From assembly GCA_963787255.1 (NCBI GenBank), contig CAWBCJ010000025.1, forward strand, positions 1-64,000: 64,000 nucleotides of DNA. Reading direction: 5' to 3'. The first letter of the stretch is position 1. Every line of letters begins with the position of its first letter. Positions 4,941 through 34,730 of this stretch are shown piece by piece. Under the pieces are notes generated by a model. That model was not told the origin of the DNA. It was given only the letters and a program-made list of their open reading frames with translations, and made no database searches. The DNA comes from Methanobacteriota archaeon. Lineage in GTDB: Archaea; Methanobacteriota; Methanobacteria; Methanobacteriales; Methanobacteriaceae. A program made the position numbers and the translations under genes.

Positions 4941-7885
4941 ATGGAAAATCAGAATAAAACTCTAAATAAATCAAAAGTCAATCCAAAAGAAAAAGGAAAA
5001 TTTCCCATAGTAGGTATTGGTTCATCTGCAGGTGGACTGGAAGCTTTAAAGGATTTATTTAGTAATATGCCCTCTGATACGGGTATGGGATTTGTTTTGA
5101 TTCAACATCTGGATCCCACACATAAAAGCACTATGGCAGAATTAATTGCAAGATATACTGATATGGAAGTTCTTGAAATTCAAGATAATATGCCAGTTAA
5201 ACCAAATAAAGTGTATGTCATTCCCCCAAATAAGGACATAGGAATTATAGATGGTGTATTAAGCCTTATTAAGCCTTTAGAACCTCATGGTTTTAGAAGA
5301 CCAATTGATTTATTCTTTCAAGCTTTAGCAGAGGATCAAGAAGAAAATGCCATTGGAATAATTCTTTCAGGATTCGGATCAGATGGAACCAAGGGCTTAT
5401 CAGCCATTAAAAGCAGTGGAGGAATGGTTATGGTTCAAGATCCAACTTCTGCAACCTCAGATGGCATGCCTAACAGTGCCATAGCCACTGATCTTGTAGA
5501 TTATATAGCTCCCCCTGAAAAAATACCTGAATATTTAATCTCATATGTCCAGCGCGTGGATAAAAAGCCTCCTATTAAATTAATTGGTCAAGATGAAGAA
5601 ACATTAGAGTTCAAGGCAGAAAATACTTATTCTAGTTAAAAACCGTACGGGGCATGATTTTTCACTTTATAAAGAAAGTACAATAAACAGGAGAATGGGA
5701 AGACGAATGGCTGTTCTCCAACTGGAGAATCTATCTGATTATCTTGAGTATATACAAAAAAATCCTCATGAAGCAAACGTGCTCTTTAAAGAATTTTTAA
5801 TCAATGTTACAAGCTTTTTTAGAGATCCTGGAGCTTTTGAATCTTTTAAAAAGAACATAATATCGAAAATATTAGAAAAGAAGGTTAATGGTGACACATT
5901 ACGCATATGGGTTCCAGGATGTGCTACTGGTGAAGAAATATACTCCATTGCCATAATTATCCGAGAATATATAGATAAAGCTGAAAAAATATTTGATGTT
6001 CAACTTTTCGGTACAGATATAGATAAAGATGCTATTGAAATAGCAAGAAGCGGGATTTATCCTTCCACAATATCTTCTGAACTAAGCCCAGAGCGCCTGA
6101 AGAAATTTTTCTCAAAAAAAGAGGATACTTACATAATTAATAAAAATATAAGGAAAATGGTTATATTTGCACCTCATGATCTTCTTAAAGATCCGCCTTT
6201 TATTAATATAGATATAATATCCTGCAGAAATGTTTTAATTTATATGAATAAAGATGCTCAAAAGAAATTATTATCTTCATTTAGCTACGGATTAAAACCT
6301 GAAGGCATCCTATTCCTTGGTCCTTCAGAAAGTATTGGTTCTTTTATGGATTCATTTAGAACCCTAGACAGTAAATGGAAGATTTATAAAAATATATTAA
6401 AGCATAGATTAGGCAAAGATTTAATTAAATATCCTCATGCAGAATTACAATATGGTCAAAGCGATATTGAAATTATAGAAAAAAATATGAAATCAGAGCC
6501 CCAAATGGCCCAAATGGTTGAAAAAATCATTATAGAAAATTATACACCTTCTTTAGTAGTGATCAATAAACAAGGTATGATAGTTTTTATCTACGGGAGA
6601 GTTGGGAAGTATTTGGAGCCCGCCCCGGGAACAGCAAGTCTTAATATTTTAGATATGGCCAGAGAAGGGATTAAACCTGAATTAAGCTCCGCAATACACA
6701 ATGCAGTTTCGAAAGGAGAAGAAGTTGAGTATAAAGATTTAGACGTTAAAACTAATGGAAATTTCCAATCAATAAATTTGAAGGTTAAACCTATCAGTAA
6801 ACCTGAGTCAATGAAAGGATTGTTAATGGTTATATTTGAGGATATAAAATCCCATGAAGATGTTAAAAAGCCTGAAAATATCCCTAAAACTGCTTCAAAG
6901 AAAAATGAGCGTATTATGGGAACTGGAAACTGAATTAAAATTGACCAAAAATCGTCTTCAAGTAACAATTGAACAGCTTGAAACATCTAATGAAGAACTC
7001 AAATCAGCAAATGAAGAATTACAGTCTATGAATGAAGAATTACAAAGCACAAATGAAGAACTAGAAACTTCTAAAGAGGAATTGCAGTCGCTTAATGAAG
7101 AGTTATTGACCGTGAATTCAGAACTTCAAAATAAAGTGGAAGATATGGTAGAAATCAATGATGATATGAATAATCTTCTTAACACTACTGAAATTGCAAC
7201 AATATTTGTGGATAAAGACATTAAAATAAAGCGTTTCACAAAAGAAGCAACTAAATTAATCAATTTAATACCACATGATATTGAACGTCCTTTAAAAGAC
7301 ATTGTGTCCAATATAGAATACAATAACCTAATTAAAGATACCGAAGAAGTAATTAAAAGAGTTATTTATAAAGAAAAAGAAGTGCTTACAAAAGATGGGA
7401 AATGGTACATTGCACGGATAGTGCCATATAAAACCTATGAAAACATCATAGATGGAGCAGTAATAACTTTTATAGATATTGATCAGCAGAAAAAAGCGCA
7501 AATATGGATTCAACACTCTCTTGATTATGTTGAAGCCATTATAGAAACTACACGTGAACCATTTATAGTTTTAGATGATGAGATACGGGTTATTTCGGCA
7601 AATAAGTCTTTTTATAATGAATTTAGTGTTTCAAAGAAAGATACGGAAGGAAAATTATTATACACTCTTGGAAATAATCAATGGGACATTCCAGAATTAA
7701 GAGATCTGCTTTCTAAGGTGATTTCTAAAGATCAAATATTTGAAGATTTTGTGGTTGAACATGAATTTCCACAAATAGGATACAAAAAGATGATTCTAAA
7801 TGCCCGGAAAATCCATCAAAAAGGAATAGAAAAAGAAATGATACTTCTGGCAATAGAGGATATTACTAATTCATCTCCACAATAA
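4941..7885 (+). CDS. CheB methylesterase-CheR methyltransferase fusion with coiled coil and PAS domains (frameshifts ~5610, ~6915)
   Basis: GIGSSAGGLEAL, IQHL, ILSGFGSDG (CheB); NVTSFFRD, WVPGCATGEEIYS, GTDID, CRNVLIY (CheR); NEELQSTNEEL coil; two PAS domains. Confidence 0.9.
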
Positions 7886-8062
7886 TTATAAATTATTTTA
7901 CATTTTTTGCCAAGATTATATGATTGGATTTCAATTTAGTCTAATAATAGATTTAAAATAACCTTGCACCAATTTAGATTAGTTTTGAAGTTTAAGAGTG
8001 TATTAATTTATAAATGTTAAATTAATATAAATTAGATAAATGTCTTAAAATTGATGATTTAA

Positions 8063-8169
8063 GCATTTACGTACACTCTTGCATCTACCATATCCATTTT
8101 TAGCACCTGTAATCTACTATGTGCTGCTGTATTTAATGGTTTTAGTGCTAGAGCATCTGAAAAGTAAAA
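8063..8169. repeat. Dispersed repeat copy A
   Basis: gcatttacg...tgcatct...aatctacta.gtg...gagcatctgaaaagtaaaa shared with 12779-12906 and 45825-45962. Confidence 0.75.
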
Positions 8170-8187
8170 TTTTAAAGTATAATTTTT

Positions 8188-8215
8188 TGAAAATTAAATC
8201 ATAAACTATAATTGT
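8188..8215 (+). promoter_or_regulatory. Conserved upstream motif TGAAAATyAAATCATAAA
   Basis: Near-identical motif at 13501 and 31918, each upstream of a PAS kinase. Confidence 0.55.
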
Positions 8216-8405
8216 ATGAAATTTACATATTTAATAAGAAAATTATTCAAAGATAATGATTTTCTTTGATTATAGAAGATAAAAAAAATTTGAATCAGCA
8301 AATTTGTGAAATAATACTATGATAAACCTTTTTTAATAATGAATTCCTGTTATATAATTTGTTTTATGGATTTAATCGGCCAAATATTAGGATTTTGTGC
8401 AAACC

Positions 8406-11249
8406 ATGAAAAAAACTGATAAATTACGTGAACGTGCAGAAGAAAAACTGCAAAAAACAGACAAAAAGCCTCGTATCTTTGGGAGTGAATCTGAATTGGT
8501 GCATGAGCTTCAGGTTCATCAAACTGAGCTGGAAATGCAGAATGAAGAACTCAGAAATTCTCAAATTGAATTGTCAGACCTTTACGAGGAATACCATGAA
8601 TTGTACAATGAAGCACCTGTAGGTTACTTTTCATTGGATAATAAAGGAAACGTAAGAAATGTGAATATTAAAGGTGCTGAATTACTTGGATTAGAAAAAA
8701 ACAGGATTATTGGAATGGGTTTCATCCTATTCATACCCTCAAATTACCAGACTAAATATTATACGTCCCTTAAAAATGCGGTGGTTATGCGTAAAATTCA
8801 AGAGGTTGAATTAAAGTTAAAAAGGGAAAAATCACTATTTTATGTTCAAATGGAAATCATACCAATACATGACAAGCCTGATGAAAAATATCGTATAATT
8901 ATAACAGATATTACTGAGCGTAAGAAAGCTGAAGATGAGCTTCGTGAAAATGAGTGAGAAATTACGAAGACTTTTTAGTAATCCCTGTAGGGATTTGCGA
9001 TTCTGGATAATCACGAGAAACGGAGAACATATACTTTTGTATAATCCTACTTTAGAAAAGATTTGGAAATGTTACAGCGGACTTAATGAAGAGGAAAACA
9101 TGTTAAAAGGAAATATATAAGGTCTGAACCGGACAGAAATGCCTTTTAATGAACTTCCCACCGTTAAAACTTTATGGCAAAAGTAGCTTAAAACTGGTGA
9201 AATTGGCAATTTTAAAGAATATACATACCTTACTTTAGACAAATGTAATGAATTACTGCATTTATCTCCAGGAAAGGAAGATTTATAGCAATTTTTACTG
9301 ATATAACCCAGCGCAAACAGGCAGAAATCGCGTTAAGGGAAAGTGAAGAGAGATATCATAGTTTATTTGAAAATAATCATGCTGCGATGCTGCTTATTGA
9401 TCCAGAAACTGGAAAAATTGTTGATTCAAATCCTGCTGCCTCTTCTTTTTATGGTTACAGCAAAGAAGAATTAAAAAGAATGAAAATCACAGAAATAAAT
9501 ACCTTAGATGAAAAGCAAACATTTTTTGAGATGCAAAAAGCAGAAACAGAACAAAATACTCATTTTTTATTTGAACATCGTTTGGCCAATGGTGAAATTC
9601 GTGATGTGGATGTTTATAGTGGGCCTATAATTTTTAAGGGTAGAAAATTTCTTTATTCAATCATTCATGATATTACAAAACAGATACGGATAGAAAAAGA
9701 TTTGAAAGATAGTGAAGAAAAATTTAGAGCGCTATTTGAACAGAGTAATGATGCAATAGTCATCGCTGACTTTACCACAGGAAGATACCTTGAATGTAAC
9801 AAGAAAACGGAAGAATACACTGGATATTCAAAAGATGAACTTCTTTCTAAAGAATTGGGCCAAATTACCTCAGATAAACAAAGAAAAAGAGCACTGGAAC
9901 ATTTTAAATCATTATCTAATGGAGAAAATATCCAATTTGAATCGGAAATTCTGACTAAAAATAAAGAAATAATTCCAGCGGATATTAAAGCCTCAGTAAT
10001 GGAGATTCAAGGCTTAAAGTATATTCAAATCATTATTCGTGATATCAGTATACGTAAATATGCAGAAAAAATTAAGGAGAGATACAAAGATCATCTTGAA
10101 AAAACAGTTAAAGAGCGAACAATGGAACTTGAAGAGGCTTATGAATCTTTAAAGAGGAGTGAAGAGAAATATCGTGAATTAGTTGAAAATGCAAATAGTA
10201 GCATAATTAGGCTTGATAAAAAAGGTATTATTACCTTTTTTAATGAATTTGCAGAGAAATTTTTTGGTTTCAGTAAAGAGGAAATATTAGGGAAAAATGC
10301 TGTTGGTACAATAGTTCCTAAAATTGAGTCTTCTGGACGTGACACTCAAAAAATTATTAATAATATTTTAATAGAGCCAAGATCATACAGTCATGTTGAA
10401 AATGAGAATATAACGAAGGATGGTAAGATAGTTTGGGTTTCATGGGCAAATAAAGGAATTTATAATGAAAAAAGTGAACCTGTAGGCGTTTTATCTGTAG
10501 GCACTGATATTACTGAACGTAAAAAAGCTGAAGAGAAATTAAAAGAAACAGTAGAAGAGCTTGAACGTTCTAATGAGGAGTTGCAGCGTTTTACTTTTAT
10601 TACCAGCCATGATTTACAAGAGCCAATACGTACTATTGTCAGTTTTACTCAACTTTTACAACGGCGTTATGAAGGTCGCTTTGATAGTGATGCTGATGAG
10701 TTTATGGATTTTGTTGTAGATGCTTCAATTAGAATGAAAGATATGATTCAGGGATTACTTGGAATATTCAAGTGTAAGAACTCAGGGAGAGGAATTTAGA
10801 GTTTTTAACGCTGAAGAAGCCCTTAAAAAAGCTTTAGATAATTTAAAATTATCTATTGATGAATGTGAAGCAGAAATTACCCATGATAATCTTCCAGAAT
10901 TCATGCTAACGAAAATCAAATAACAAGAGTATTCCAAAATTTAATTAGCAACGCTCTTAAATTCTAAAAAGGAGGATGAACCTCAAGAATACATATTTCA
11001 GCGACAGAAAGGAAAAATAATGAATGGATTTTCTCTGTTGAAGATAATGGAATAGGAATGGAAACACAATACACTCATAAAATATTTGAAGTATTCCGGC
11101 GCTTACACACCATTGATGAATACAAAGGCACAGGAATTGGATTTGCAATCGTTGAAAGAATTATAATCAGTCATGGTGGACGTATTTGGGTTGAGTCAGA
11201 TTTTGGTGTTGGTTCTACTTTTTATTTTACAATTCCTACGGGGGATTGA
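8406..11249 (+). CDS. Multi-PAS sensor histidine kinase (several frameshifts)
   Basis: ELQVHQTELEMQNEEL coil, ~5 PAS/PAC modules ending DIT, H-box [11 protein letters not shown]2 GTGIG, end GSTFYFTIP. Confidence 0.85.
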
Positions 11250-11339
11250 TTAATTTCTTTTTTTTTGGGATAGAGAATAAAGTTCACACTTTTATGTATT
11301 TATATTCATTGTGTACAATATAGCATAAAGTGTGTTATT

Positions 11340-13562: not shown

Positions 13563-16500
13563 TTGGACAGAACCAACAAAAAAAGCATAAAAGACCTTGA
13601 AAGTCAATCAGGGGATGAATTCCGGGAAATATTTAATCAATCACCTATAGGTATCCTTCTATATGATAAAGATGGAATTACAGTCAATGCTAATAATTCC
13701 GCGCTTAAAATGGTGGGAATTCCAAAGTTAGAGGGTATATTAGGGCATAGTTTGTTTGATAATCCCCGTATTGAGGAAAGGAAAGAGGAATTAATAGATA
13801 AGGGTATTATCCGGTTTCAGGCTCCTTTAAATTTAGAGAAAATTAGAGATTTTGGTTTATATATCAATAAAAAGGGAATTTTGTTTTTAGATTATACTGT
13901 TTCTGTTACTGATTCTGGCTATTTAGTTCAAATTCAAGATATTACTAAGCAAAAGGGAGCTGAAGATAAGTATCGTGCGTTATTTGAACAAAGTAATGAT
14001 GCTATTCTTATTGCAGATTTGAAGACAATGAAATATGTAGACTGTAATAAGAAAGCAAAAGAACTAACTGGATACTCAAGAGAGGAATTATTATCAAAAA
14101 AGGTTGGTGAATCAACTCATCCAGTAATTAGAGATAAAATAATGGGTTTATTTTGTAAAAAATTAAAAACTGGAGATACTGAAACCTTTGAAAATGAAAT
14201 AATAACTAAAGATGGAATAAAATATATAGAATCTACAGTTAGTATTATTGAAATTGAAGGTAAAAAACATGCCCAAATTGCTTTCAAGGATATAACAAGG
14301 AAAAAAGATGCTGAAAAGGCTTTAATAAATAGTGAAGAAAAGTATCGAAGTATTGTTGAAACAGCTAATGAAGGCATCATGATAGCTGATACATCGGGTA
14401 TTATAACATATGTTAATACTAAAATGGCGGAAATGTTGGGCTATGCAGTAGAAGAATTGATAGGGAAAGAAGGTATATCTCTTATTGAGCCAACGGAACT
14501 TGAAAAAGCGCAGGCCAAAGTTAAAAAGCGGAGAATGGGAATAAAAGAAGAATATGAAATTAAATTCCACCGTAAAGATGGTGGAATCTTGTGGACACAT
14601 GTTAATGGCACACCTCTTTACGACCAAAATGGTGAACATATAGGCAACTTGGCAATGTATACAGATATTACCGAGCGTAAAAAAGCTGAAGAAGCTTTAA
14701 GAGATACTAATGATCGGTTAGAATTGGCGCAGAAGGTTTCAAATGTCGGTACATTCGAGTGGAACATTCAAACCGGGGTAAACACATGGACACCAGAATT
14801 AGAAGCTATGTATGGACTCAAAGAAGGTGAATTTCCCGGGATACAGGAAGCATGGGAAGAATTAGTTCACCCTGAAGACATGCCTGAAGCTGTGCACCGT
14901 GTTGATATTGCATTAGAAACTGGAGAGCCAGTGGAAGGTGAATGGCGAGTTATATGGCCTGATGGCAGCGTGCATTGGTTATTCGGCCGTTGGCAGGTCT
15001 TCAAAGACAATGATGGGAAGCCTCTGAAGATGATTGGTGTCAATGTTGACATTACTGAACGTAAAAAAGCTGAAGAAGAATTAGAGAAAAGCAAGGAAAA
15101 ATATCACACTTTATTTAATTCTATTGATGAAGGTTTTTGCATTGTTGAAGTGATTTTTGATGCTAATAATAAGCCTATTGACTACTGCTTTTTGGAGATG
15201 AATCCAGCTTTCGAAAGGCAAACTGGATTGCATGAAGCTGAAGGTAAACTGATGCGTGAACTTGCTCCGAGTCATGAGGAATATTGGTTTGAAATTTACG
15301 GTAAAATTGCATTAACGGGCAAACCAATGCGCTTTGAAAACAGGGCAAAAGCATTGAACAGGTTTTATGAGGTTTATGCCTTTAAAATTGGCGGTCCTGA
15401 AAGCAGGAAAGTTGCCATTCTATTTAATGATATTAATGAACGTAAAAAAGCTGAAGAGCATATTAAAAACTTGTTAGAAGAAACACAACAATTAAATGAA
15501 AAATTAGAAGTATCCAACGAAGAGCTCAGACATCAGGGAGATGAATTATTACAGGCTAATCAGGTCCTGCGGCAAAGTCGGGAGGACATGGATCGTGCCC
15601 AGGAGGTCGGGCAAATCGGCAGTTGGCGGCTGGATGTTCGTCGTAACATCCTGACATGGTCTGACGAGAACTATCGAATTTTTGGTGTGCCTAATGGAAC
15701 ACCGATGACCTACGAAAAGTTCTTGGGGATCGTTCACCTTGATGACCGCCAGTATGTCGACACCCAATGGATGGCTGGCCTTGCTGGCGAGCTCTATGAC
15801 ATCGAACACCGCATTGTTGTTGGCGATCGGGTAAAGTGGGTGCGAGAGAAGGCTTACCTTGAATTTGACGATGAGAGCATGGTGCTGGGGGGCTTTGGGA
15901 TCACCCAAGACATTACAGACCGTAAAAATGCCGAAAAGGTGCAAAAACAGCTTGCCCAACAACGTCAACTTGCCCTGAACGCGGCACACATGGGATGGTG
16001 GCATTACGATCCATTGACTGAGATTGCTACGTACGATGAGGGGTATAAAAAAATATTTGGAGTTTCTGGTAGTAGGCGTCCAAATAAAGAAATTCTAAAG
16101 CGATTGCATCCAGATGACTTACCAAATGTCTGGGCAAAGGTAGAAGCAGCACTTGACCCGGAAGATCCGAAACCATACTTGGCAAAATACCGCATCTTCC
16201 GTGATAAAGGAGAAGTGCGATGGATTGAATCTCACGGTATAACCACTTTCGAGGGCGAAGGCGATGCTCGACGAGCGACAAGCCTTGTTGGTACAGTGGA
16301 AGATATCACTGAGCGCATGAATGCTGAAAAAGCTTTAAAAGAAGCTCATGATAATCTTGAACAAAAGGTTGAAGAGCGTACTTGTGAGATTGAAGAAGCT
16401 TATCAGCTTGTGAAGGAGAATGAATTTAAGCTTAAAGATGCCATAAAAGAGTTGGAACGTTCTAATAAGGAGTTGCAGAGTTTTGCTTATATTACCAGTC

Positions 16501-17137
16501 ATGACTTACAGGAACCTTTGCGTACTATGGGTAGTTATGCGGGTCTTTTAAAACATCGTTATGGAGGCCAATTGGATAGTGATGCTGATGAGTTCCTTGA
16601 CTATCATGGTTAGTGGAGCAGTTAGATTGCAGGATATGATTAAAGGATTGTTGGAGTATTCTCGTGTTGGAACACGGGGTGGAGTGTTTAAAGATTTTAA
16701 TGCAGGGGAGGCTTTAGATACTGCTTTAACTAATTTGAAATCTCCAATTGAAGAATGCCACGTTGAAGTATTATATGATTCTCTTCCGGTGATTCATGCT
16801 GATGAAAGCCAGATTACCCGAGTATTCCAAAATTTAATAGGAAATGCATTAAAATTCCGTAAGAAAGGTGTTCAGCCTAAGATTCATATTAAAGCACAAA
16901 AAGAAGGCCATGAATATATTTTCAGTGTACAGGATAATGGTATTGGAATAGAACCACAATATACTGACAGAATCTTTGAAGTATTCAAGCGTTTACACGC
17001 CATTGGAGAATATGAAGGAACAGGAATTGGATTAGCCATTGTTAAAAGAATTATTGAACGGCATCATGGAAGAGTTTGGGTTGAATCAGAATATGGGTGT
17101 TTTTTCTACTTTTTATTTCACAATACCCATGGCTTAA
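13563..17137 (+). CDS. Large multi-PAS (~7 modules) histidine kinase (frameshifts ~16600, ~17100)
   Basis: Repeated PAS/PAC ending [10 protein letters not shown]; [10 protein letters not shown]; FQNLIGNA; DNGIG; GTGIGL. Confidence 0.9.
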
Positions 17138-17253
17138 AAGGGAATTAAATATTTTTTTTTTGAATACTTTTCTTCTGCTCTCTTGCACAAGCGCTACCTA
17201 TATGTAGTTTCAATATAATGGATTGACATCACATATAGGGAGGTCCAAATTGT

Positions 17254-20199: not shown

Positions 20200-22885
20200 T
20201 TACTCCTCTCCGTTCATCACGCCAATTGGAATTGTGAAATAAAAAGTAGAACCCACACCCAACGAGGACTCCACCCAAACACGACCACCATGACGATCAA
20301 TAATCCTTTTAACGATGGCTAATCCTATTCCTGTTCCTTCATATTCTCCAATGGGGTGTAATCGTTTGAATACTTCAAATATTTTGTGAGTGTATTGTTT
20401 TTCCATTCCTATCCCATTATCCTTAACTGAAAAAACCCATTCACGTTTTTCTTTATCTGTACCCGCAGAAATATGAATTCTTGGAGGTTCATCATGCCTT
20501 TTTAAACTTAATTGCATTACCAATCAAGTTCTGGAAGACCCTAACCATCTGATCAGGATCCGCAATAACATTTGGAAGATTATCATGCGTAATTTCAGCA
20601 CTAGACTCATTAATTGCATATTGCAAGTTAGAAACAGCCTTTTCAACCTTAGCATTCATATCTGTTTTAACAAACTCTATTCCCGCTCTATTAACACGTG
20701 AATAATCCAATAAACCCTGAATCATACCCTTCATCCGGGTTGCGCCACTAACCATGAAATCAATGAACTCATCAGCATCACTATCCAACTGGCCACCATA
20801 ACGCCTTTGTATAAGCTGAGCATAACTAGCAACACTCCTCAAAGGCTCCTGTAGGTCATGGCTGGTAATATGAGCAAAACTCTCTAACTCCTCGTTGGAA
20901 CGTTCTAATTCAGTTATAGCTTCTTCAAGTTCCCTTGTACGCTCCTTAACTTTAATTTCTAAATTATCATGTGCTTGTCTTAGTTCTTCTTCAGCTTTTT
21001 TACGTTCAGTAATATCGAAAAGCTGCACTACAAAGCCATTAAATTCTCCTTTTTCATCTTTTATGGGTTTTGAAGTGAATGATACCCACCATACATCTCC
21101 ATTTTTCTTCACTGACTTGAATTCTAAACTTTTAGGGCCTTCTCCTGTAGCAAATGCATTATCAAATAACTTTTGAAGTCTGGAAGTTTCATCTGAATGA
21201 ACAATCCAAATATTTTCTTGTATTTCTTCTGGAGTATAACCCGTCATTTCCGTAGCATTAGGGCTAAAATACTGAATTTTACCTTCTGCATTTAAAATGA
21301 CAAGTAAACTGGGAGAAGTATCCACAACACTCCTGAACCATTGTTCACTCTTTCTTAAGGCTTCTTCAGCTTTTTTACGCTCGGTAATATCACGATTAGT
21401 TTCAATAACAATCATTTTACCCGCGGTATCTTGAATTAACTGCATGTGGCTTTCAACAATGATCTTCTTGCCCTCTTTGGTTGTATGAACCAATTCACCA
21501 GTCCATATCCTATCATTAGCCAATTTCTCCTTGAATTCACTAAATTCCAATGGAAAATTAGTTTTAAGCAAATCATAACCGTTTAAACCAATAGCTTCCT
21601 TACTGCCATATTTATATAGTCTTTCAGCACCCTGATTCCATGATAATATTCCGTCTTCGTAATCCCATGAAAAAATAGCTTCATATGATACATCTAATAA
21701 AGCAGCCCGTTTCTTTAACTCTTCTTCTAATTTTTTACGTTCAGTAATGTCATTTGAGGTGCCAATTACTCCAATTACATTTCCATCATGATCACGAAGT
21801 GGAACTTTATTGGTGTCAAACCATGCTACATGCCCATCTACCTGGCGCAATGTCTCAATAATATTAAGTTGGGGTATTCCACTTTCTATAACTTGAAGAT
21901 CGTCAGCACGGTACAATTCTGCCTCATTTTTCCATGGCAACTCCTGATCAAAGTCACTCTTACCTATTATCTCTGATGGTTCAGCAAGTCCTGCTCCTCT
22001 TGAAAAGTTCTTGTTACATCCTAAATATACTGAATTGAGGTCCTTCCAAAATACGACCCCTGGAAAGTTTTCCAGGACATTTTCCAACATCTGTTGGGAG
22101 CTCTTCAACGCATCTTCAGTTTTTTTACGCTCGGTAATATCACGATTACTTGCTCTTCGCCCCATAAACCTTCCATCATCATCATAAACTGGCTGGCAAA
22201 TGTGTTCAATCCAATGAATATTCTTATCACGACTTATAATACGAAATTGAATTGATTCAGCGTTAGAATTTGAAAAATGTACATTTCTATGTTTTTTATA
22301 TGATTCCAAGTCATCAGGATATATAATATTAAATATTAAGTTAGAATTTTCCATGAATTCTTTTTTACTGTAACCTGTTATTCTTTTACAGCTTGGAGAA
22401 ACATATTTTAGTTTACCTTTATTATCGCGCCATTCTTCCCAGTCATAAGTAAAATCAGCTACAAGATGATAATTTTTTTCCGCTGCTATTAGTTTTTCAT
22501 CAGCTTTTTTTTGCTCGGTTATATCAACTCTAATCACTGCAAAATAATTATCGGGTATATCAAAACCTGAAAAAATGAAATACTTATCCGTAGGCGGATA
22601 ATATAGTTCTAATCGTTTAAATTTGCCTGTAGTTAGAAATTCATTAATCGATTGAAAAACAGGGTTTAAATAATCTGGACTAAATAATTCTGTAGCATTC
22701 TTACCAATAGCATCCTCAGGATTTAGATCCATAGCTTCAACAGTAGTTGGGTTCATATATTCAAGTTCAGCATCAATAGCTTCACCTATATCATTAAAAA
22801 TAAGTTTATAAACTGATACTCCTTCCAGCATATTGTCAAATGCCTTAAACTGATTTTCAATTATAGTTTTATCAGTTTTTTTCAT
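20200..22885 (-). CDS. Multi-PAS (5 modules) histidine kinase (frameshift ~20495)
   Basis: DITE-ending PAS modules; [10 protein letters not shown]; HATPase end lies in ORF 20200-20523. Confidence 0.9.
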
Positions 22886-22975: not shown

Positions 22976-24691
22976 TTAGGAAATGCCACTATTTTTAACA
23001 GATTCAAATGGAATTGTAAAATAAAAAGTAGAACCCACACCTAACGAGGATTCAACCCATATTTGTCCTCCGTGGCGTTCAATGATTCTTTTAGCGATGG
23101 ACAAACCTATTCCTGTTCCTTGGTATGTTTCTCGTGTGTGTAATCGTTGGAATATATTGAAAATACGCTCAGCATACTGTGGTTCAATTCCAATTCCGTT
23201 ATCCTGTACTGAAAAGACATACTGTTTATCTTCTTTTTCAGCGGATATATGGATTCTTGGAGGGAATTGGGGCTTTTTAAACTTAATAGCATTCCCTATT
23301 AAATTCTGGAATAGTAGAATTAATTGATTTTTATCAGCCCTTATTTCAGGAAGCGGATCATGAGTAATTTCTGCATTATTTTCATCAATTGAAACTTTTA
23401 AATTAAAAAGAGCATCATCAATTACTTTTTCAAGTTGGGTTAATTCAAATTCGCCCTCTTTTGTTTCCAACCTTGTATATTCCAGTAAATCATTAATTAA
23501 ATACTGCATTCTTTTAGATCCATCCACAATATAATCCATGAATTCATCAGCATCACTATCCAACTGGCCTTTATAACGCCTTTCCAGTAGTTGTGTAAAA
23601 CTGGCAATAGTACGAAGAGGTTCTTGAAGATCATGGGACGCTACATATGCAAATTGTTGTAATTCTTCATTTGCTACTTGGAGTTCCTCAGTGGTATCCT
23701 GTAATTCTTCATTTGCTACTTGGAGTTCCTCAGTGGTAGCCTGTAGTTCTTCATTGGAAACTTCTAATTCTTCAGCAAACTGTTGAGTCTGTTCTAATAG
23801 TTTTTGTTTCTCTGCTTCGGCTTTTTGACGTTTTAAGTCTGTTTTATTTATCGAAATTATATTTATCCAAAGCAATGTAGTTATGACCATAACAGTTGCA
23901 AATACTAATAGGGCGTTTCCTAAGCCAATATCAAAAAAACCTTCATTTTGGCCTAATGTGTTCAACCATCCCAATATTATGGGGATTGTAATAACAACAG
24001 GTAATATTCTACGGCCGAATACACTTCCGGGGCTTTCACCAATTAATAATCCTATAAATCCTTTATCTGGGCGTATAAATACTATTGCAAAAAATATTAA
24101 ACCAAAAATTAATGTAGCGTAAATTGCAATTCCGGTATAATCATATACCATATACAGATCTGAAGCTTGATATATATAACCTAATGCCGCTAAGAAAGTT
24201 ATAAGTCCCTCTATAATAATTATAATTTGGAATAAAGGCCATCCTATCTTTATATTTTTATCAAGCACTAAAATTGAACTGCCAACTAAGACTAGACCAA
24301 GAGCTGCATTAAAAGCCATACGGTTGGGTGATGAAGTATTTAAAGCTTCGGGAAGTTCTTTAAACAATATTTGATCAATCAATAAATTAAAACCAGTTAA
24401 ATGTTCAATAAGAGTTAATAATCCAATTATAGTAACTATAGCTGCTAATATTTTAGCGATCTTGATATTACGTTGATTAACACGTTTGGTTTGCATTAGC
24501 CATAGTGAAATGCCTATAAAGACAAAACAAAGTGCGATATTAGATTTAATTGTTGAAAATAGGGAGCCAGGACTTTTAAGAATGGGAACATTAAATGCCC
24601 AACCAATTAAAAAAACAATACCTGAAATAATAATTATTATACTTAAAGCTTCTGAAATATTGCTTAATCGGGATAAATATGACTTTTCCAT
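22976..24691 (-). CDS. Membrane-bound histidine kinase with multi-TM sensor and heptad-repeat coil
   Basis: ~8 hydrophobic helices, EELQATTEELQVAN repeats, [10 protein letters not shown]; ATG at 24691 follows a ggaga RBS. Confidence 0.9.
   Translation of the reverse strand: MEKSYLSRLSNISEALSIIIIISGIVFLIGWAFNVPILKSPGSLFSTIKSNIALCFVFIGISLWLMQTKRVNQRNIKIAKILAAIVTIIGLLTLIEHLTGFNLLIDQILFKELPEALNTSSPNRMAFNAALGLVLVGSSILVLDKNIKIGWPLFQIIIIIEGLITFLAALGYIYQASDLYMVYDYTGIAIYATLIFGLIFFAIVFIRPDKGFIGLLIGESPGSVFGRRILPVVITIPIILGWLNTLGQNEGFFDIGLGNALLVFATVMVITTLLWINIISINKTDLKRQKAEAEKQKLLEQTQQFAEELEVSNEELQATTEELQVANEELQDTTEELQVANEELQQFAYVASHDLQEPLRTIASFTQLLERRYKGQLDSDADEFMDYIVDGSKRMQYLINDLLEYTRLETKEGEFELTQLEKVIDDALFNLKVSIDENNAEITHDPLPEIRADKNQLILLFQNLIGNAIKFKKPQFPPRIHISAEKEDKQYVFSVQDNGIGIEPQYAERIFNIFQRLHTRETYQGTGIGLSIAKRIIERHGGQIWVESSLGVGSTFYFTIPFESVKNSGIS
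23658..23772. repeat. 42-bp tandem repeat encoding EELQxTTEELQVAN
   Basis: gtaattcttcatttgctacttggagttcctcagtggta(t/g)cct x2 plus a partial third copy. Confidence 0.85.
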
Positions 24692-25227
24692 AGTATCTCC
24701 TGTATTACATTTAATTTCAAGAACGTTTTTGGGAAATATTAAAAAATTAGAAAGTGTGACCGTTACATTTTTAAACACTTTCAAAAATAGTTCCAAGTCT
24801 ATAACTAGTTTTCACAGCTATTCTTAGTATTTAAACTTCGTTAATGTTCTATCTTAGGATAAATCTAACAATATTATTATAATTTAGTTATTATTATTTT
24901 TTGCTATTTTTAGACTGCATTCATATAAGAATAAATTATTAGATGAAATAATTTATTAAAAAAATAGAGTATTTTTAACTTTAATAAAAATATTTTTCAT
25001 GCGTTATATAATGCGAGTTTTAGCGAAGCATAATTATGACCAGATCAAAACTGCTCTTTTTTTTGACATTAATTCATAAAATTATTACCTGTTTAAAAAT
25101 GAAAACTATAAAAAAAAAATATTTTTTAAAATTATAATAACGGTGTGAATAACGAAATTCAGATAAAAATTTTTTTGGGTAATTAATTAATTTTTTTTAA
25201 TAGAAAGAATTTGAGAAAAATATTAAC

Positions 25228-28162: not shown

Positions 28163-28255
28163 ATTCAGTTAGCTGTATATATAGTAGTTAATTTGGTAGT
28201 ATGGGGGCTTTAAATCATAAACTTTATTACTTTTTAAAGACAATAATAGTATAAT

Positions 28256-29381: not shown

Positions 29382-29445
29382 ATCCATTATAATAATTCTC
29401 CATTTTTTTTTACTTTATCTTTTTTTTTTTAATGGAGCGGGGAAA

Positions 29446-30248
29446 ATGGCACTTGATGTCAATATAAACCCTTTGAGCTTAACATTAATTGTAACTCTAT
29501 TTACCTGGTTTATAATTGCTTTAGGTGCTTCTACCGTATTTCTAACTAAGAAAATTAACTCAAAATTTCTTGATATTTCACTTGGATTTGCAGCTGGAAT
29601 CCTGATATCTGTAAGTTTATTTTCACTAATTCTTCCTGCTATTGAAATATCAAATGCAGAAATAATTCCAGCATGGATCCCTGTTTTAATGGGATTTCTT
29701 TTAGGCGTATTTTCAATGTTAATAATACATAAAATAATGAACAATCTAAATCCGATTTATAAATCTGAAAGGGATCAAAATATTTGGAAACGTAACCGAT
29801 TGCTGATTATTGCATTAACCTTGCACCATATACCTGAAAGTCTTTCATTAGGCATTGCATTTGGAGCAGCATACGTAACATTGGGTGTGGTTACATTGGC
29901 AGGTGCATTTTCTTTAGCGATTGGAATTGGCATCCATAACTTCCCTGAAGGAATAGCAGCATCATTACCACTTAGATCCGAGGGAATGTCACGCCAAAAG
30001 AGCTTTTTTTATGGTCAATTAACTGGAATTGTAGAACCTATAGCCGGAGTTGCAGGCGCAATACTATGTAACAATCATACAACCCCTAGTTCCCTATGCC
30101 TTGGGATTATGCCGCAGGAGCCATGATATTTGTTACCATAAAGCACTTAATTCCAGACATCCTAAAAAGCCAAAATACAATCATATCCACTCTATTTGCA
30201 ATATTTGGCTTTGTTATAATGATAGTATTAGAACTGGTATTAGGATAA
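29446..30248 (+). CDS. ZIP family metal transporter (GufA/ZupT-like; frameshifted near 3' end)
   Basis: LGFAAG, TLHHIPE, GIHNFPEG, GIVEP. Confidence 0.85.
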
Positions 30249-30381
30249 AATTTCAATCAATATTAAATAGGATGTAAATATAAAATTTCATATCATATAG
30301 AGGATAATACTTGTAGGTATATAGATGAATGGGAATAGTCAATTTATTTCATGATAAAAAGGAATATAGTTGGGCTTATTT

Positions 30382-31896
30382 ATGTCAAAAAAAATATTGA
30401 TAGTTGAAGATGAACCAATTACGGCATTGGACCTTAAAAAAACATTGACAAATGTTGGATTTGAAGTAGTTTCTATAGAAGATAAGGGAAAAAATGCTAT
30501 TAAAAAAGCTGAAGAACTTAGACCCGATTTAGTTTTAATGGATATTGTGCTTAAAGGTGAAATAGACGGTATTGAAGCAGCTGAAAAGATAAATAATCAA
30601 TTAGATATCCCTGTAGTTTACTTAACTGCTTATTCTAATGATAAACTATTTGAAAGGGCTAAATTAACAGGGCCTTATGGATTTCTTGTTAAACCATTTG
30701 ATTTTTATGAATTAAAATGCACTTTAGAAAGTGCTCTTCATAGATATGAATTAGAACACGAATTAAAAGAGAGTGAAAAGAATTTAAAAGTATTCTTAAA
30801 TGCCATTCCAGATTCTGGCATTTTATTAGAACTCGATGGAACAATAATCATCGTAAATGAATCACTTTTAAAAAAATATGGCAAATCCGAGGATAACATC
30901 ATAGGAAAAGATGTAATGGATGTTTTACCCGAATTTATGGCTGATAAATGCCGGGAAACCTGGAAAACAGTTATTGAAACAAAAAAACCCATTACTATTG
31001 AAGTAGAACACTTCGGAGTATACATAAAATATTGTATTAACCCGGTTATTGATAATAATGGTAATGTATCTAGATTAGCGGTTATCCTTTATGATATTAC
31101 AAAATCTAAAAACATGGAAAAACAATTGAAAGAATCTTATAATAATTTAGAGTTAAAAGTAACGGAGAGAACAGCAGAACTGGATACACTTATTGATGAG
31201 CTAAAGCGTTCTAATGAGGAATTAACACAGTTTGCTTATGTTTCTAGTCATGATTTACAAGAACCGCTTCGGAGTATTGCCAGTTATGCTCAGCTTATAG
31301 AAAGGCGTTATAAAGGTCAATTGGATGAGTGATGCTGATGAATTCATTGAGTACATGGTAAGTGGAGCAAAAAGAATGCAGCAGTTAATCAACGATTTGC
31401 TTGAATATTCGAGAATTGCAACACAAGAAGAAGAATTACAGGAAGTGGATACAGAAGAAGTTTTGGATAGTGTCTTATCTAATCTTAAGTCTTCAATTGA
31501 AGAAAATAATGCAGAAATAAGGGTTACGATAAACTTCCAACTGTAACCGCTGATAAATCGCAATTAAATCAAGTATTCCAAAACCTTATTGGAAATGCTA
31601 TTAAGTTTAAAAAGGATGATGAACCTCCAAAGATTCATATTTCAGCCCAAAAAGATGAAGAAAAAGGAGAATACATTTTCAGTGTGCAGGATAATGGTAT
31701 TGGAATGGAAACACAATATGCAGAACGTATTTTTACCATATTCCAGCAGTTACATACAATAGATGAATATAAAGGAACAGGAATAGGTTTGTCCATCGCC
31801 AAAAGAATCGTGGAACAGCATGGAGGACGAATATGGGTGGAGTCCTCGTTGGGTGAAGGTTCTACTTTTTATTTCACAATTCCAATTAAAGAATAG
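30382..31896 (+). CDS. Hybrid REC-PAS histidine kinase (frameshifts ~31328, ~31525)
   Basis: KILIVEDE...PDLVLMDI; PAS; [10 protein letters not shown]; HATPase end. Confidence 0.88.
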
Positions 31897-31979
31897 CTCT
31901 TTTTTTAATAATATTTGTGAAAAATTAAATCATAAATTATTTTAATAATTAAATTATATAAGTTTCAAGGTGTTTTTAA

Positions 31980-34730
31980 TTGGATAAAACCAACAAAAAA
32001 GGCATAAAGAACTCCATATCTCCATCTGCTGATGAGTTAAAAGTTTCAAACGAAGATTTACAAGCTACAAATAAGAAGCTTCAACAGCAGGTAGATGAAC
32101 TGGTAAAAGTCAATAAAGCTCTACGGGAAAGTGAAGAGCGTACGCGCCAAGCAATGGTTAAGGAACGCGAAAACGACGCTTTGAAGAGTTCTCCGGCATC
32201 AGTCGAAGATACACGGCTTAATGAATCCCTGCAAACCATTCAGGAGCGCCCATGGTTGAATTTGGCGTTGCGCTACAGTGCAGCCATCCTAGTGGTGATA
32301 ATTGCATTCTGGCTGTACGAAGGGATGACAGCGTGGCTTGGCCCAGGGCTACCGACATACATCCTGTTCTATCCTGCAATCATAATCGTGGCTTTCCTAC
32401 TCGGCTTCGGACCAGGCTTGCTGGCCACATTTATAGCGGTAATGATAGCAGTAATCTGGATTATACCACCAATCGGACAATTTGCAATCGACTCGCCCGT
32501 AGAACGATTTGGAGTAGTAATCTTTAGCAGTATGGGAGTACTGCTGAGCAGTGTGGCAGAACTTTACCGCCGAAACCGAATTAAAGCCGCCGCATATGAC
32601 AAGGAAACAGCCCTGCGTGAAACACGACAAGAGAAGGAATTTCTGGCCAACATCCTCGAACATGCCTCCCAGCCCTTTGCTGTAGGCTACCTCGACGGAA
32701 GATTGGGACGATTCAATCATGCCTTCGAGCAACTTACTGGATACACTGTTGAAGAGCTGCACACCATCGACTGGTCAGCTACCCTCACACCCAGAGAGTG
32801 GAGGGATATGGAAACGCAAAAATTAGACGAACTCCGTCGCACCGGTCAGCCCGTCCGCTACGAAAAGGAATACATTCGCAAGGACGGCTCCCGAGTGCCC
32901 ATCGAGCTGCTGGTCCATATGGTGTCAGATGAGAAGGGCAACCCTGAATATTACTATTCCTTCATTACTAATATTACCGAGCGTAAGAGGGCTGAAGAAG
33001 CATTAAGAGAGAGTAAAGAGCGATTAGATCTGGCGCAGAAGGTGTCAAATGTAGGTATATTCGAGTGGAACATTCAAACAGGAGTAAACACATGGACACC
33101 AGAACTAGAAGCCATATATGGACTTCAAGAAGGTGAATTCCCAGGGACACAGGAAGCGTGGGAAGAACTAGTTCACCCTGAAGACATGCAGGAAGCCGTA
33201 CGCGGTGTTGACATTGCATTAGAAACTGGAGAGCCAGGTGAAGGTGAATGGCGAGTTATATGGCCTGATGGCAGCATACGTTGGTTACTTGGACGTTGGC
33301 AAGTATTCAGTGACGATGTTGGGAAGCCTCTGAAGCTAATCGGGGTCAATGTTGATATTACTGAGCATAAAAATGCAGAAGAGCAAATTAGAATCTTGTT
33401 AGAAAAAACACAACAATTAAATGAAGAATTAGAAGTATCCAATGAAGAATTGCAAGCCACTACTGAGGAACTTCATGTTTCTAATGAAGAGCTCAGAGAA
33501 CAAGGCGATGAGCTGTTAAAAATTAATCGTTCTCTTAGTGAAAGTGAGGAGCGTTTCCGTAATCTTGCTGATAATATTCCTAATTTGGCTTGGATGGCAG
33601 ATGCAGATGGATGGATATTCTGGTATAATAAACAGTGGTATGATTATACTGGTACAACATTGGAGGAGATGCAGGGTTGGGGTTGGCAGAAGGTTCATCA
33701 CCCTGATTATGTTGAGTCAGTGACAGAAGAATGGTCCACAAGTATCAAAGAGGGAAAACCATACGATAATGTATTCCCATTGAAGGGTAAGGATGGTAAC
33801 TATCGCTGGTTCCTTACAAGAGTCACACCTATTAAAGACAATCAGGGTAAAATTCAACGCTGGTTCGGAACTAATACAGACATTACAGTGCGCAAAAAGT
33901 TAGAAGAAGAGTTAAGAGAATCTCGTGATAATCTTGAAGATAAGGTTAAAGAGCGTACTGTTGAGATTGAGGAAGCGTATAGTCTTGTGAAGGAAAATGA
34001 GTTTAAGCTTAAAGAGGTTATAACTGAGTTAGAGCGTTCTAACCGGGAATTGGAGAGTTTTGCTTATATTACTAGTCATGATTTACAGGAACCGCTTCGG
34101 AGTATTGCTAGTTATGCTCAGCTTATTGAGAGACGTTATAAAGGTCAATTGGATGATGATGCTGATGAATTCATTGATTTCATGGTTATTGGTGCTAAAA
34201 GAATGAAAGATATGATTCAAGGATTATTGGAGTATTCTCGTGTGGGTACACAAGGGGAAGAATTTAAAGATTTTAGTGCTGAAGATGCCTTGAATAATGC
34301 ATTATCTAACTTAAAATCGTCAATAGAAGAATGTGATGTGGAAGTAACTCATGATTCCTTGCCGGTTGTTTTTGGGGATGAAACTCAAATTATAAGTGTA
34401 TTCCAGAATTTAATAGGGAATGCTATTAAGTTTAAAAAGCCCGATGAACCTCCAAGAATCCATATTTCAGCACGAAAAGAAGGTAATGAGCATATTTTTA
34501 GCGTACAGGATAATGGAATAGGGATGGAAGAACAATATTCTGACCGTATTTTTGAAGTTTTCAAGCGTTTACATCCCATTGGGGAATATCAAGGTACTGG
34601 AATAGGATTAGCCATTGTTAAAAGGATTGTTGAACGTCATGGTGGTCGTGTTTGGTTGGAGTCCTCGTTGGGTGAAGGTTCTACTTTTTATTTTACTATT
34701 CCTTTATTAGAAGTGAAATCTAGTTTTTAA
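31980..34730 (+). CDS. Histidine kinase with DUF4118-like 4-TM domain, 3 PAS modules and heptad coil
   Basis: PTYILFYPAIIIVAFLLGFGPGLLA; PAS modules; [10 protein letters not shown]; intact 916-aa ORF. Confidence 0.92.
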   Translation: MDKTNKKGIKNSISPSADELKVSNEDLQATNKKLQQQVDELVKVNKALRESEERTRQAMVKERENDALKSSPASVEDTRLNESLQTIQERPWLNLALRYSAAILVVIIAFWLYEGMTAWLGPGLPTYILFYPAIIIVAFLLGFGPGLLATFIAVMIAVIWIIPPIGQFAIDSPVERFGVVIFSSMGVLLSSVAELYRRNRIKAAAYDKETALRETRQEKEFLANILEHASQPFAVGYLDGRLGRFNHAFEQLTGYTVEELHTIDWSATLTPREWRDMETQKLDELRRTGQPVRYEKEYIRKDGSRVPIELLVHMVSDEKGNPEYYYSFITNITERKRAEEALRESKERLDLAQKVSNVGIFEWNIQTGVNTWTPELEAIYGLQEGEFPGTQEAWEELVHPEDMQEAVRGVDIALETGEPGEGEWRVIWPDGSIRWLLGRWQVFSDDVGKPLKLIGVNVDITEHKNAEEQIRILLEKTQQLNEELEVSNEELQATTEELHVSNEELREQGDELLKINRSLSESEERFRNLADNIPNLAWMADADGWIFWYNKQWYDYTGTTLEEMQGWGWQKVHHPDYVESVTEEWSTSIKEGKPYDNVFPLKGKDGNYRWFLTRVTPIKDNQGKIQRWFGTNTDITVRKKLEEELRESRDNLEDKVKERTVEIEEAYSLVKENEFKLKEVITELERSNRELESFAYITSHDLQEPLRSIASYAQLIERRYKGQLDDDADEFIDFMVIGAKRMKDMIQGLLEYSRVGTQGEEFKDFSAEDALNNALSNLKSSIEECDVEVTHDSLPVVFGDETQIISVFQNLIGNAIKFKKPDEPPRIHISARKEGNEHIFSVQDNGIGMEEQYSDRIFEVFKRLHPIGEYQGTGIGLAIVKRIVERHGGRVWLESSLGEGSTFYFTIPLLEVKSSF

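Follow-up and report, generated by a model that had tools for sequence, protein, structure and literature searches.

In chemotaxis, the textbook form of memory is the reversible methylation of glutamates. Methylation sites of chemoreceptors follow the consensus E-E-x-x-(A/S)-(T/S), and some of them are encoded as Gln. To our knowledge, memory based on glutamate methylation has so far been established for chemoreceptors only.

The closest described systems belong to the 'methyl-accepting coiled-coil' hypothesis of Wuichet and Zhulin (2010, Sci Signal), as related in the available text of a 2022 preprint (bioRxiv 10.1101/2022.05.07.491037) and of PMC6943060. According to these texts, the proposed function of MAC1 is self-methylation, and MAC2 comprises coiled-coil kinases whose associated CheB and CheR are encoded separately. 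The accessible part of the preprint also describes MAC proteins as including a kinase domain, as experimentally uncharacterised as of 2022, and as occurring in species of which about 80 % have other chemotaxis systems. A MAC1 profile HMM is available in MiST3 (PMC6943060, available text), and MAC1 proteins carry the JGI name 'two-component system CheB/CheR fusion protein'. As far as the text of the literature was available, no experimental paper was found on CheR acting on a kinase or showing coil methylation. The word CheR is absent from the accessible text of an archaeal two-component census (PMC5847659), and nothing relevant was found in the accessible parts of PMC13355700 and PMC8396549.

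The window analysed here is the whole stretch of 64,000 nucleotides from a genome of the Methanobacteriaceae (2.47 Mb, 29 contigs, 95 % complete). An earlier note on this DNA had proposed a receptor-free methylation system, in which an orphan CheB-CheR fusion modifies heptad coils of ordinary histidine kinases. The fusion was confirmed, though it extends over three frames. The features concerned are as follows.

4941..5639, + strand: CheB methylesterase domain, part 1 of the fusion (Pfam CheB_methylest, E 9e-58, residues 24-199)
5600..5640, + strand: frame break 1 (frame 0 to +1), separating the CheB part from CheR_N (sequence)
5608..6933, + strand: CheR_N, CheR SAM-dependent methyltransferase and an unnamed PAS-like stretch, part 2 of the fusion (Pfam CheR, E 9e-56)
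6854..7885, + strand: coil, PAS_10 and PAS, part 3 of the fusion (Pfam PAS_10, E 1.8e-30, and PAS)
6915..6922, + strand: frame break 2, an extra base at a G run (sequence)
6977..7135, + strand: Glu-pair heptad coil of the fusion with repeated N-E-E-L-Q-S-x, LETSNEELKSANEELQSMNEELQSTNEELETSKEELQSLNEELLTVNSELQNK
8397..8957, + strand: small PAS protein (Pfam)
13563..17148, + strand: multi-PAS kinase in two frames, 13563-16613 and 16561-17148 (Pfam)
22976..24796, - strand: membrane histidine kinase with membrane part, coil, HisKA and HATPase_c (Pfam)
31980..34730, + strand: DUF4118-PAS-PAS_3-coil-PAS-HisKA-HATPase_c kinase (Pfam)

The gene at 4941-7885 is a kinase-less CheB/CheR fusion of the MAC1-like class. 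Its parts follow the order receiver-less CheB, CheR, PAS-like stretch, seven Glu-pair heptads, PAS_10 and PAS. A receiver domain is absent ahead of CheB. The CheR_N match in part 2 is partial, and the frame is open from about 5608 over 441 aa, the listed ORF being 5695-6933. The CheR part corresponds to about residues 215-495 of the intact protein. Relatives have the gene unbroken, as one open frame of about 975-1000 aa, and an intact relative of 980 aa (L024) shows the Pfam order CheB-CheR_N-CheR-PAS_10-PAS. Neither 6854-7885 nor this relative contains a Pfam match to HisKA or HATPase_c. Among the 120 best homologues, most (about 975-1010 aa) likewise lack a kinase domain, and some matches of 1280-1628 aa have one. 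The fusion family is very large, as 7,981 of 8,000 scored candidates were found at E <= 1e-10. The fusion's CheR is the only one in the genome.

The CheB motifs GSSAGG, QH and GSDG align with the catalytic positions of 3sft. Across 84 full-length relatives, the columns of the CheB triad hold S in 84, H in 84 and D in 67 (E in 16, G in 1), and R292, Y432, E329/E330 and D357 of CheR (numbering of relative P0005) are invariant in all 84. Catalytic and SAM-binding residues of CheR (PF01739) and CheB (PF01339) are thus retained, as seen also in alignments to 3sft, 1af7 and 5ftw. This conservation indicates that the enzymes are under selection, and by these residues both domains look active.

Chemoreceptors are missing from the setting of these enzymes. 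The earlier note had reported that MCP, CheA and CheW are absent from the window and had suggested a search of the whole genome. No match to MCPsignal (PF00015) was found in the 16 window proteins scanned with Pfam, and the search of the 95 % complete genome returned 0 matches for MCPsignal, CheW, H-kinase_dim (the CheA dimerisation domain) and archaellin; the profiles PF02895, PF01584, PF00015 and PF01917 gave 0 matches here and did match in control genomes. The setting is therefore receptor-free, and no MCP or other known CheR/CheB substrate was found in this genome. The earlier note had called Methanobacteriales generally non-chemotactic. Across the order, MCPsignal was over the cut-off in no more than 2 of the 301 genomes. 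CheR was over the cut-off in 69 of these 301.

The heptad coils reported earlier for the fusion and for the kinases at 22976 and 31980 were all located. In kinase 22976, the coil AEELEVSNEELQATTEELQVANEELQDTTEELQVANEELQQFAY lies at 23645-23776 and is continuous with the H-box helix. Kinase 31980 has the coil NEELEVSNEELQATTEELHVSNEELREQGDELLKI at 33420-33524 and the N-terminal SNEDLQAT motif (SNEDLQATNKKL) at 32046-32081. For the two further coils that had been named, the motifs are present, but they are minimal. The short coil of kinase 13563 (NEKLEVSNEELRHQGDELLQA, 15495-15557) contains one strict NEEL heptad, and a two-sequence comparison places its coil region close to that of kinase 31980, minus about two heptads (14 residues). 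The ELEMQNEELR motif of ORF 8397-8957 (ELEMQNEELRNSQIEL, 8526-8573) has a single NEEL unit, and this ORF was rejected as a multi-heptad coil and as a member of the system. Four further coil-bearing ORFs are found on contigs C26, C1 and C9. The coil kinases of the window lie 15-24 kb from the fusion, and the rest are on other contigs. A DNA pattern for EELx4EELx4EEL has 18 matches in this genome and, read backwards as a chance control, 0 matches in each of the 301 genomes, so that the count is above chance.

The composition of both coil types is strongly constrained, and the coils contain no Lys or Arg. The coil DNA of the fusion has a period of 21/42 nt. N-E-E is invariant across six consecutive heptads in 120 of 120 homologues, the coil being matched by phmmer with filters off and not with the default filters. 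In 846 fusion heptads, E occupies position b in 831 and position c in 830, and Gln is found at the pair positions in at most 9. The coil has seven heptads in 104 of 121 runs and is the most conserved stretch of the protein. In 312 kinase heptads, E is at b in 286 and at c in 294, position f holds A/V/S and position g holds T/S/A, and Gln takes the pair positions in at most 7; the kinase heptads thus follow the pattern E-E-x-x-(A/S)-(T/S). Judged from these sequences, the Glu pairs are held far tighter than plain coiled-coil surface positions require.

We infer from these features a system in which the CheR and CheB of the fusion methylate and demethylate the fusion's own coil as well as the dispersed kinase coils; every chemical step and the effect on the kinases belong to this proposal, to which we give an even chance. 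On helices built of N-E-E-L-type heptads, CheR would add methyl groups to the glutamates and CheB would remove them, acting first on the coil of the fusion itself. A second target, reached in trans, would be the related N/T-E-E-L-Q-(A/V/S)-(T/S) linker helices of dispersed PAS/GAF histidine kinases, namely two kinases in the window and the four ORFs on the other contigs. Neutralising two negative charges per heptad may alter the stability or register of the helix, which would carry the signal from PAS to the next PAS, GAF or DHp module. The predicted outcome is a slow, reversible gain setting for two-component kinases, as chemoreceptor methylation gives, with the PAS domains of the fusion probably setting the balance between methyl addition and removal. 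More broadly, a single kinase-less CheB-CheR sensor could act as a shared trans adaptation enzyme for a set of PAS/GAF kinases in non-motile, chemoreceptor-free methanogens, by way of a portable linker helix, 3-11 Glu-pair heptads long and still growing by 14-residue duplications. This generalisation is tentative and should be regarded as rather doubtful.

The distribution of coil and enzymes in relatives bears on this proposal. NEELx3TEEL, the kinase-type pattern, was matched in 44 of 301 genomes, and these all belong to three genera. Leaving this genome aside, these genera comprise 67 genomes, of which 53 have CheR (41 with the coil, 12 without) and 14 do not (2 with the coil, 12 without). 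The co-occurrence check suggested by the earlier note was therefore positive: CheR is present in 41 of 43 relatives with the kinase-type coil (Fisher p 2.6e-5, overstated because relatives are not independent), and the coil is absent from 12 of 14 genomes without CheR. As it is confined to three related genera, this co-distribution reflects few independent events. H-box matches of the same kinase family still number 34 in the 12 genomes lacking both, and G146 accounts for 15 of these matches. The 12 CheR-positive relatives without a kinase-type coil indicate a role of the fusion that is independent of these kinases; they include the closest complete genome, G088, with 26 H-box matches. At least two coil kinases are present in G174 (95 % complete, about 150 contigs, 8 kb withheld), which has no match to CheR or CheB, and G183 has kept its coil kinases alongside a fusion that is a truncated remnant. 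In three genomes of genus g10 (G036, G155 and G106), a stand-alone CheR is convergent with a neighbouring coil kinase. The strict pattern of three EEL units failed to detect the coil of the fusion itself in G097 and genus g4, in which some units are NEES, NEEA or NEEM, and therefore all pattern counts are lower bounds.

In other prokaryotes, the coil is mostly joined to the enzymes. In a collection with one genome per species, NEELx3TEELx3NEEL was found at 118 loci in many phyla, and 66 of these have CheB and/or CheR in-frame (both at 56). At 5 more loci, CheB or CheR lies inside the 8-kb locus. For 18 of the 19 bacterial coil loci with neither, the genome has a strong CheR match, which in at least 4 cases is the same gene just beyond the coil locus. 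At the 28 Methanobacteriaceae coil loci, neither CheB nor CheR is present within the locus (up to 8 kb). The in-frame fusion of CheB-CheR and coil in bacteria implies a link between enzymes and coil here.

In a co-folding model of a possible physical contact, the CheR part and the kinase 22976 coil scored 0.62 compared to 0.02 for the best control, the controls being unrelated proteins and not other acidic helices. In the calibration, 58 of the 80 solved complexes reached that mark, as did 2 of the 110 mismatched pairs; these counts are only rough because custom alignments were used. Contact agreement between runs was at least 93 %, and partner pLDDT was at least 80. On the CheR side, the modelled interface comprises the invariant residues K242, T245 and R248 (CheR_N helix) and N428, I431, Y432 and E461 (catalytic cleft); the kinase coil contributes E27/E28 and E34/E35. 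In this model the kinase coil docks in the active-site cleft of CheR, which counts as support for binding and not as proof of it.

Several observations stand against the proposal. Gln is nearly absent at the pair positions of both coil types, the coil profile finds no solved chemoreceptor, and G174, G183 and the 12 of 53 CheR-positive relatives without the kinase-type coil are exceptions to the co-distribution. Moreover, the co-folding controls were unrelated proteins, and the fusion is broken twice in this assembly. The reading of the earlier note is partly supported, by the lack of receptors, the active look of both enzyme domains, the co-occurrence, the coil inside fusions in other prokaryotes and the docking model; G174 and the 12 relatives without the coil count against it, and the idea itself is not new.

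The most serious alternative, which we nevertheless consider unlikely, is a purely structural role. The heptads would form a parallel coiled coil, with Asn/Thr at a and Leu at d, which joins PAS, GAF and DHp modules and is copied among PAS proteins; the kinases would not be substrates, and the fusion would act on itself or on an unknown protein. A heptad (R/K/A)-(S/A)-N-(E/K/R)-E-L immediately precedes the H-box in all window kinases of this HisKA type, and the coil of kinase 22976 extends this helix in register. This kinase also contains a 42-nt tandem unit at 23658-23755 (2.3 copies, 96 % identity), showing that the coil grows by simple slippage. The flanks of the coil module are conserved and contain non-Glu motifs, LLE..QQL before and QQGDELL after. 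Since the three genera are related, the co-distribution could be due to shared descent, and G174 has coil kinases in a genome lacking CheR and CheB. However, a structural role leaves unexplained the near-invariance of both outward-facing Glu in each heptad, the pattern inside CheB-CheR fusions at 66 of 118 loci in many phyla, the lack of the coil in G146, which has no CheR despite its 15 H-box matches, and the modelled placement of the coil in the catalytic cleft. Searched against the PDB, the coil profile matched designed helical proteins only, with no chemoreceptor among the solved structures. Coil kinases as disguised chemoreceptors were rejected, as the MCPsignal domain is absent. A region search with the coil of kinase 31980 passed 46 of 373 scored candidates, and all named matches are from Methanobacterium, which is too shallow for a distribution.

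Another possibility, judged improbable, is decay in this strain, with both frameshifts being real and the fusion a pseudogene like several adjacent kinase genes. The fusion gene occupies three frames, at least four further window genes are likewise split across frames, pieces of CheB containing stops are found on contigs C8 and C29, and G183 provides a precedent for a degenerating fusion of this kind. However, the extra bases are absent from near-identical public metagenome DNA. At break 1, the base at 5607 is missing in the sole public-run contig covering the site, and at break 2, contigs from all four covering runs have one base fewer at 6917-6921. No public sequencing run contained at least half of the sampled words of the stretch, and no RNA run was among those listed. 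Short runs of a single base are found at or next to both breaks, in keeping with an assembly error, and all three parts of the fusion score as intact domains in Pfam. The split consists of two single-base insertions. In addition, decay would concern this genome alone and not the system across the genus.

Least probable is a self-contained MAC1 protein, in which CheR and CheB would modify the fusion's seven-heptad coil alone and the kinase coils would either pair with it in a mixed, state-relaying coiled coil or be unlinked: the fixed length and high conservation of the fusion coil, the 12 CheR-positive relatives without the kinase-type coil and the bacterial coils located mostly in the same polypeptide as the enzymes would fit, but two PAS domains with no output domain need some partner, kinase-type coils are nearly confined to CheR-positive genomes, a stand-alone CheR adjoins a coil kinase in the three g10 genomes, and docking on CheR in the model is seen for a kinase coil and so is not restricted to the fusion coil.

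If one fusion does act in trans on such a set of kinases, classical two-component signalling would have a methylation-based memory. Should methylation be demonstrated, this kind of adaptation would reach into classical two-component systems and non-motile archaea, and one of the largest families of uncharacterised signalling proteins would gain a function. Methanobacterium-type genomes are an unusually clean test bed for this, with MCP, CheA, CheW and the archaellum absent. The present genome offers a single CheR and few candidate substrate kinases, which form a defined set and are separate proteins.

Compared to chemoreceptors such as Tar and Tsr, the coils share heptad-spaced Glu pairs followed by small residues, and the enzymes belong to the same families with their catalytic residues kept. 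However, the window has no MCPsignal, hairpin four-helix bundle, CheW or CheA; its helix serves to link sensor modules with kinase modules, and Gln is nearly absent at the pairs. The canonical chemotaxis pathway differs further, as CheA, CheW, MCP and archaellin are unmatched in this genome. The methylation idea as such is already known as the MAC1/MAC2 hypothesis, and the arrangement differs from MAC as described in the available text of the 2022 preprint by combining a kinase-less fusion with dispersed, unlinked coil kinases. As in MAC1, a receiver-less CheB is fused to CheR, followed by a conserved Glu-pair coil and PAS domains. In contrast to the accessible description of MAC, the window fusion has no histidine-kinase domain and occurs in archaea without other chemotaxis genes, which about 80 % of MAC species have. 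As in MAC2, ordinary histidine kinases with a Glu-pair coil are predicted to be modified by a separate enzyme, and in the three g10 genomes only, a stand-alone CheR adjoins a coil kinase as well. In the window, however, the CheR and CheB genes are not adjacent to the kinases, and one fusion would serve several of them.

Matches to MCPsignal, CheW, the CheA dimerisation domain and archaellin were absent from the genome (2.47 Mb, 29 contigs, 95 % complete), while control genomes were matched. The earlier note's description of an orphan CheB-CheR fusion without MCP, CheA or CheW thus holds for the whole genome, in which CheR occurs once, within the fusion. Since MCPsignal exceeded the cut-off in 2 of the 301 Methanobacteriales genomes sampled versus 69 for CheR, the receptor-free state is a lineage trait that extends beyond this one genome. 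The strong CheR matches were mostly found in frames of 970-1030 AA, with a few stand-alone frames of about 300 AA.

Fusion gene, coils and pre-H-box heptads in the window
4941-7885: fusion gene; CheB methylesterase domain without receiver, CheR_N and CheR, PAS-like stretch, heptad coil, PAS_10 and PAS (Pfam)
6977-7135: coil of the fusion, repeated N-E-E-L-Q-S-x
23645-23776, (-): coil of kinase 22976-24796, in register into the H-box helix
33420-33524: coil of kinase 31980-34730, between two PAS domains
10554-10625: pre-H-box heptad
16446-16517: pre-H-box heptad
20843-20914: pre-H-box heptad
31195-31266: pre-H-box heptad
34023-34094: pre-H-box heptad

The Pfam scan found no kinase domain in the fusion. 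Judging by named homologues, the genome belongs to Methanobacterium; the locus of one relative encodes McrA. Some 150 conserved residues separate CheR from the coil (window 6480-6850, approximately residues 500-650 of the full-length relative P0005). No Pfam family matches them in the window ORF, yet they resemble a PAS fold; if so, the fusion coil would, as in the kinases, sit between two PAS-like domains.

The coils of kinases 22976 and 31980, the two complete kinases of the window, are related to the fusion coil, with a first position alternating between Asn and Thr. The coils were present as claimed in the fusion and in both kinases; the motif of kinase 13563 is one strict heptad, and the small PAS protein with the motif at 8526 has a lone NEEL unit. 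Four further ORFs on contigs C26 (two), C1 and C9, all PAS/GAF kinases, carry at least two overlapping EEL-x4-EEL units. A three-EEL DNA pattern gave 18 matches in the genome, and its reversed control none in any of the 301 genomes. Coil length ranges from 3 to 11 heptads in 46 homologous kinases; of 121 fusion runs, 104 comprise 7 heptads. The kinase 22976 coil includes a 42-nt tandem duplication (window 23658-23755, 2.3 copies, 96 % identical), which shows that two heptads were gained recently. All kinases of this HisKA type carry a single (R/K)-S-N-(E/K/R)-E-L heptad immediately ahead of the H-box; in kinase 22976, this heptad appears to have expanded in register into the long coil.

In the present assembly, the fusion is spread over three frames, with breaks at about 5607 and 6917-6921; in relatives, it is a single open frame of about 975-1000 AA. 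Because near-identical public metagenome DNA has one base fewer at both sites (the sole covering contig at the first, contigs of all four covering runs at the second), the breaks are either assembly errors or private to the strain. Additional copies of the fusion upstream region and CheB part terminate contigs C17 (13800-14843) and C8 (1-1200), with 88 % and 95.5 % identity to window 4189-5543, so that the genome may contain more than one fusion gene that the assembly failed to resolve. A degenerate CheB piece with stops is located at C29:698083-698437. At least four further window genes are split between frames like the fusion.

Split or truncated genes in the window
13563-17148
20200-22885, (-)
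35177-37140: ORF pair, presumably a single cation-transport ATPase gene that has been split
30370-31332
8397-10799

In two kinases, HisKA and HATPase_c lie in separate frames, and one receiver-PAS protein breaks off directly behind its H-box motif. The pattern suggests either frequent single-base assembly errors or decay of the signalling island.

The CheB motifs align with the catalytic positions of 3sft and the CheR motifs with 1af7 and 5ftw. The CheB Ser and His as well as CheR R292, Y432, E329/E330 and D357 (P0005 numbering) are present in 84 of 84 full-length relatives, and the acidic CheB residue is D in 67, E in 16 and G in 1. By sequence, both enzymes look active. In the coil, N-E-E is invariant across six consecutive heptads in 120 fusion homologues. 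Positions b and c are Glu in 831 and 830 of 846 heptads in fusion homologues, and in 286 and 294 of 312 heptads in kinase homologues; the Glu pairs are thus constrained to an unusual degree. With A/V/S/T at position f and T/S/A at g, the kinase heptads follow E-E-x-x-(A/S)-(T/S), the shape of the chemoreceptor methylation site. A misfit is that some chemoreceptor sites are encoded as Gln, whereas Gln is nearly missing at the Glu-pair positions of the fusion and kinase coils.

The kinase-type pattern NEELx3TEEL was found in 44 of the 301 genomes, all from genera g1, g9 or g10, and its reversed control in none.

Co-distribution of CheR and kinase-type coil in g1, g9 and g10 (67 genomes, this genome left out)
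CheR present (53): coil in 41, no coil in 12
CheR absent (14): coil in 2, no coil in 12

Coil kinases thus co-occur with CheR, in line with the proposed link, although the Fisher p value of 2.6e-5 (by genus 0.11, 0.0025 and 0.03) overstates it because relatives are not independent. The link is not simply a matter of many kinases, since the kinase family itself persists in the 12 genomes without either CheR or coil, with 34 H-box matches, 15 of them in G146 alone. One exception, G183, keeps kinase-type coils, but its fusion is reduced to a truncated and frameshifted remnant with coil and PAS_10 and without CheB or CheR; this remnant (L036 2461-3539, G183:C72) adjoins a potassium-channel-like gene. 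The other is G174, a draft genome in about 150 contigs, of which 8 kb were outside the search; it contains two or more coil kinases, but neither CheB nor CheR. Since 12 CheR-positive genomes have no kinase-type coil, including the closest complete genome (G088), the fusion has an independent role.

Beyond the order, a scan for NEELx3TEELx3NEEL in one genome per species yielded at least 118 loci from many phyla, and their six-frame ORFs were scored with profiles from the fusion alignment. Among the matches listed, CheB and/or CheR lay in the coil's own frame in 66 of 118 loci (both in 56), elsewhere within the 8-kb locus in 5, and in neither in 47, where the coil ORF was cut by the locus end in 22. 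All 28 Methanobacteriaceae loci among these matches belong to the last class. Of its 19 listed bacterial loci, 18 come from genomes with a strong CheR match, which in at least four is the same gene, just beyond the locus end. Based on the same-frame loci and these 18 genomes, the bacterial coil is almost always physically joined to CheB and CheR among the matches listed; in Methanobacteriaceae, it has in addition spread to kinases that are separate and unlinked. Genes that are fused in one lineage and separate in another are a classic hint that they are functionally linked.

A near-identical 47-residue coil recurs in the CheB-CheR fusions of L052, L058, L062, L066, L070, L072 and about 20 more listed loci, from gut-derived genomes labelled Oscillospiraceae, Lachnospiraceae, Erysipelotrichaceae and Spirochaetales, which suggests recent transfer among them or wrongly binned contigs.

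In three g10 genomes, a stand-alone CheR (304-315 AA) is convergent with a DUF4118-PAS-coil-HisKA-HATPase kinase.

Loci with stand-alone CheR and coil kinase
L023 2877-7076
L029
L034 4977-8897

Just upstream of the pair, L023 has Pfam-confirmed mcrA and tetR-type genes; the corresponding ORFs of L034 are known by matching size and place alone.

For co-folding, residues 215-495 of an intact relative, its CheR part (83-row alignment), were combined with the kinase 22976 coil (10-row alignment). This gave a score of 0.62 (runs 0.62, 0.66 and 0.51) versus 0.02 for the best control, the controls being proteins other than acidic helices. By rough counts, with own alignments used, 58 of 80 solved complexes scored at least as high, as did 2 of 110 mismatched pairs. 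At least 93 % of contacts are common to the runs, with a partner pLDDT of at least 80. Modelled contacts involve invariant K242, T245 and R248 of the basic CheR_N helix and N428, I431, Y432 and E461 of the cleft, facing E27/E28 and E34/E35 of the coil. The model supports, and does not show, binding of the coil by CheR. We know of no solved complex of CheR with a methylation helix; a pass from model memory therefore seems unlikely.

Co-distribution, bacterial fusions and modelled binding give partial, indirect support to the earlier note's proposal that the fusion may methylate kinase coils. That CheR and CheB act on any NEEL-type coil is in our view slightly more likely than not; a role of the dispersed kinases as substrates in trans is a more tentative reading and somewhat less likely than not. 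No experimental study of CheR acting on a kinase was found in the literature searched. The proposal is not original in kind, as it corresponds to a hypothesis already in print: according to the passages available from two later papers, Wuichet and Zhulin defined 'methyl-accepting coiled-coil' proteins, in which CheB and CheR are either part of the protein (MAC1) or associated with it (MAC2) (bioRxiv 10.1101/2022.05.07.491037; PMC6943060), and MiST3 has profiles for both classes (PMC6943060). The preprint describes MAC proteins as experimentally uncharacterised. Relative to this definition, as conveyed by those papers, the kinase-less fusion with unlinked coil kinases in archaea without chemotaxis genes is a variant whose arrangement was not found described there, and as a clean system it lends itself to initial biochemical testing.
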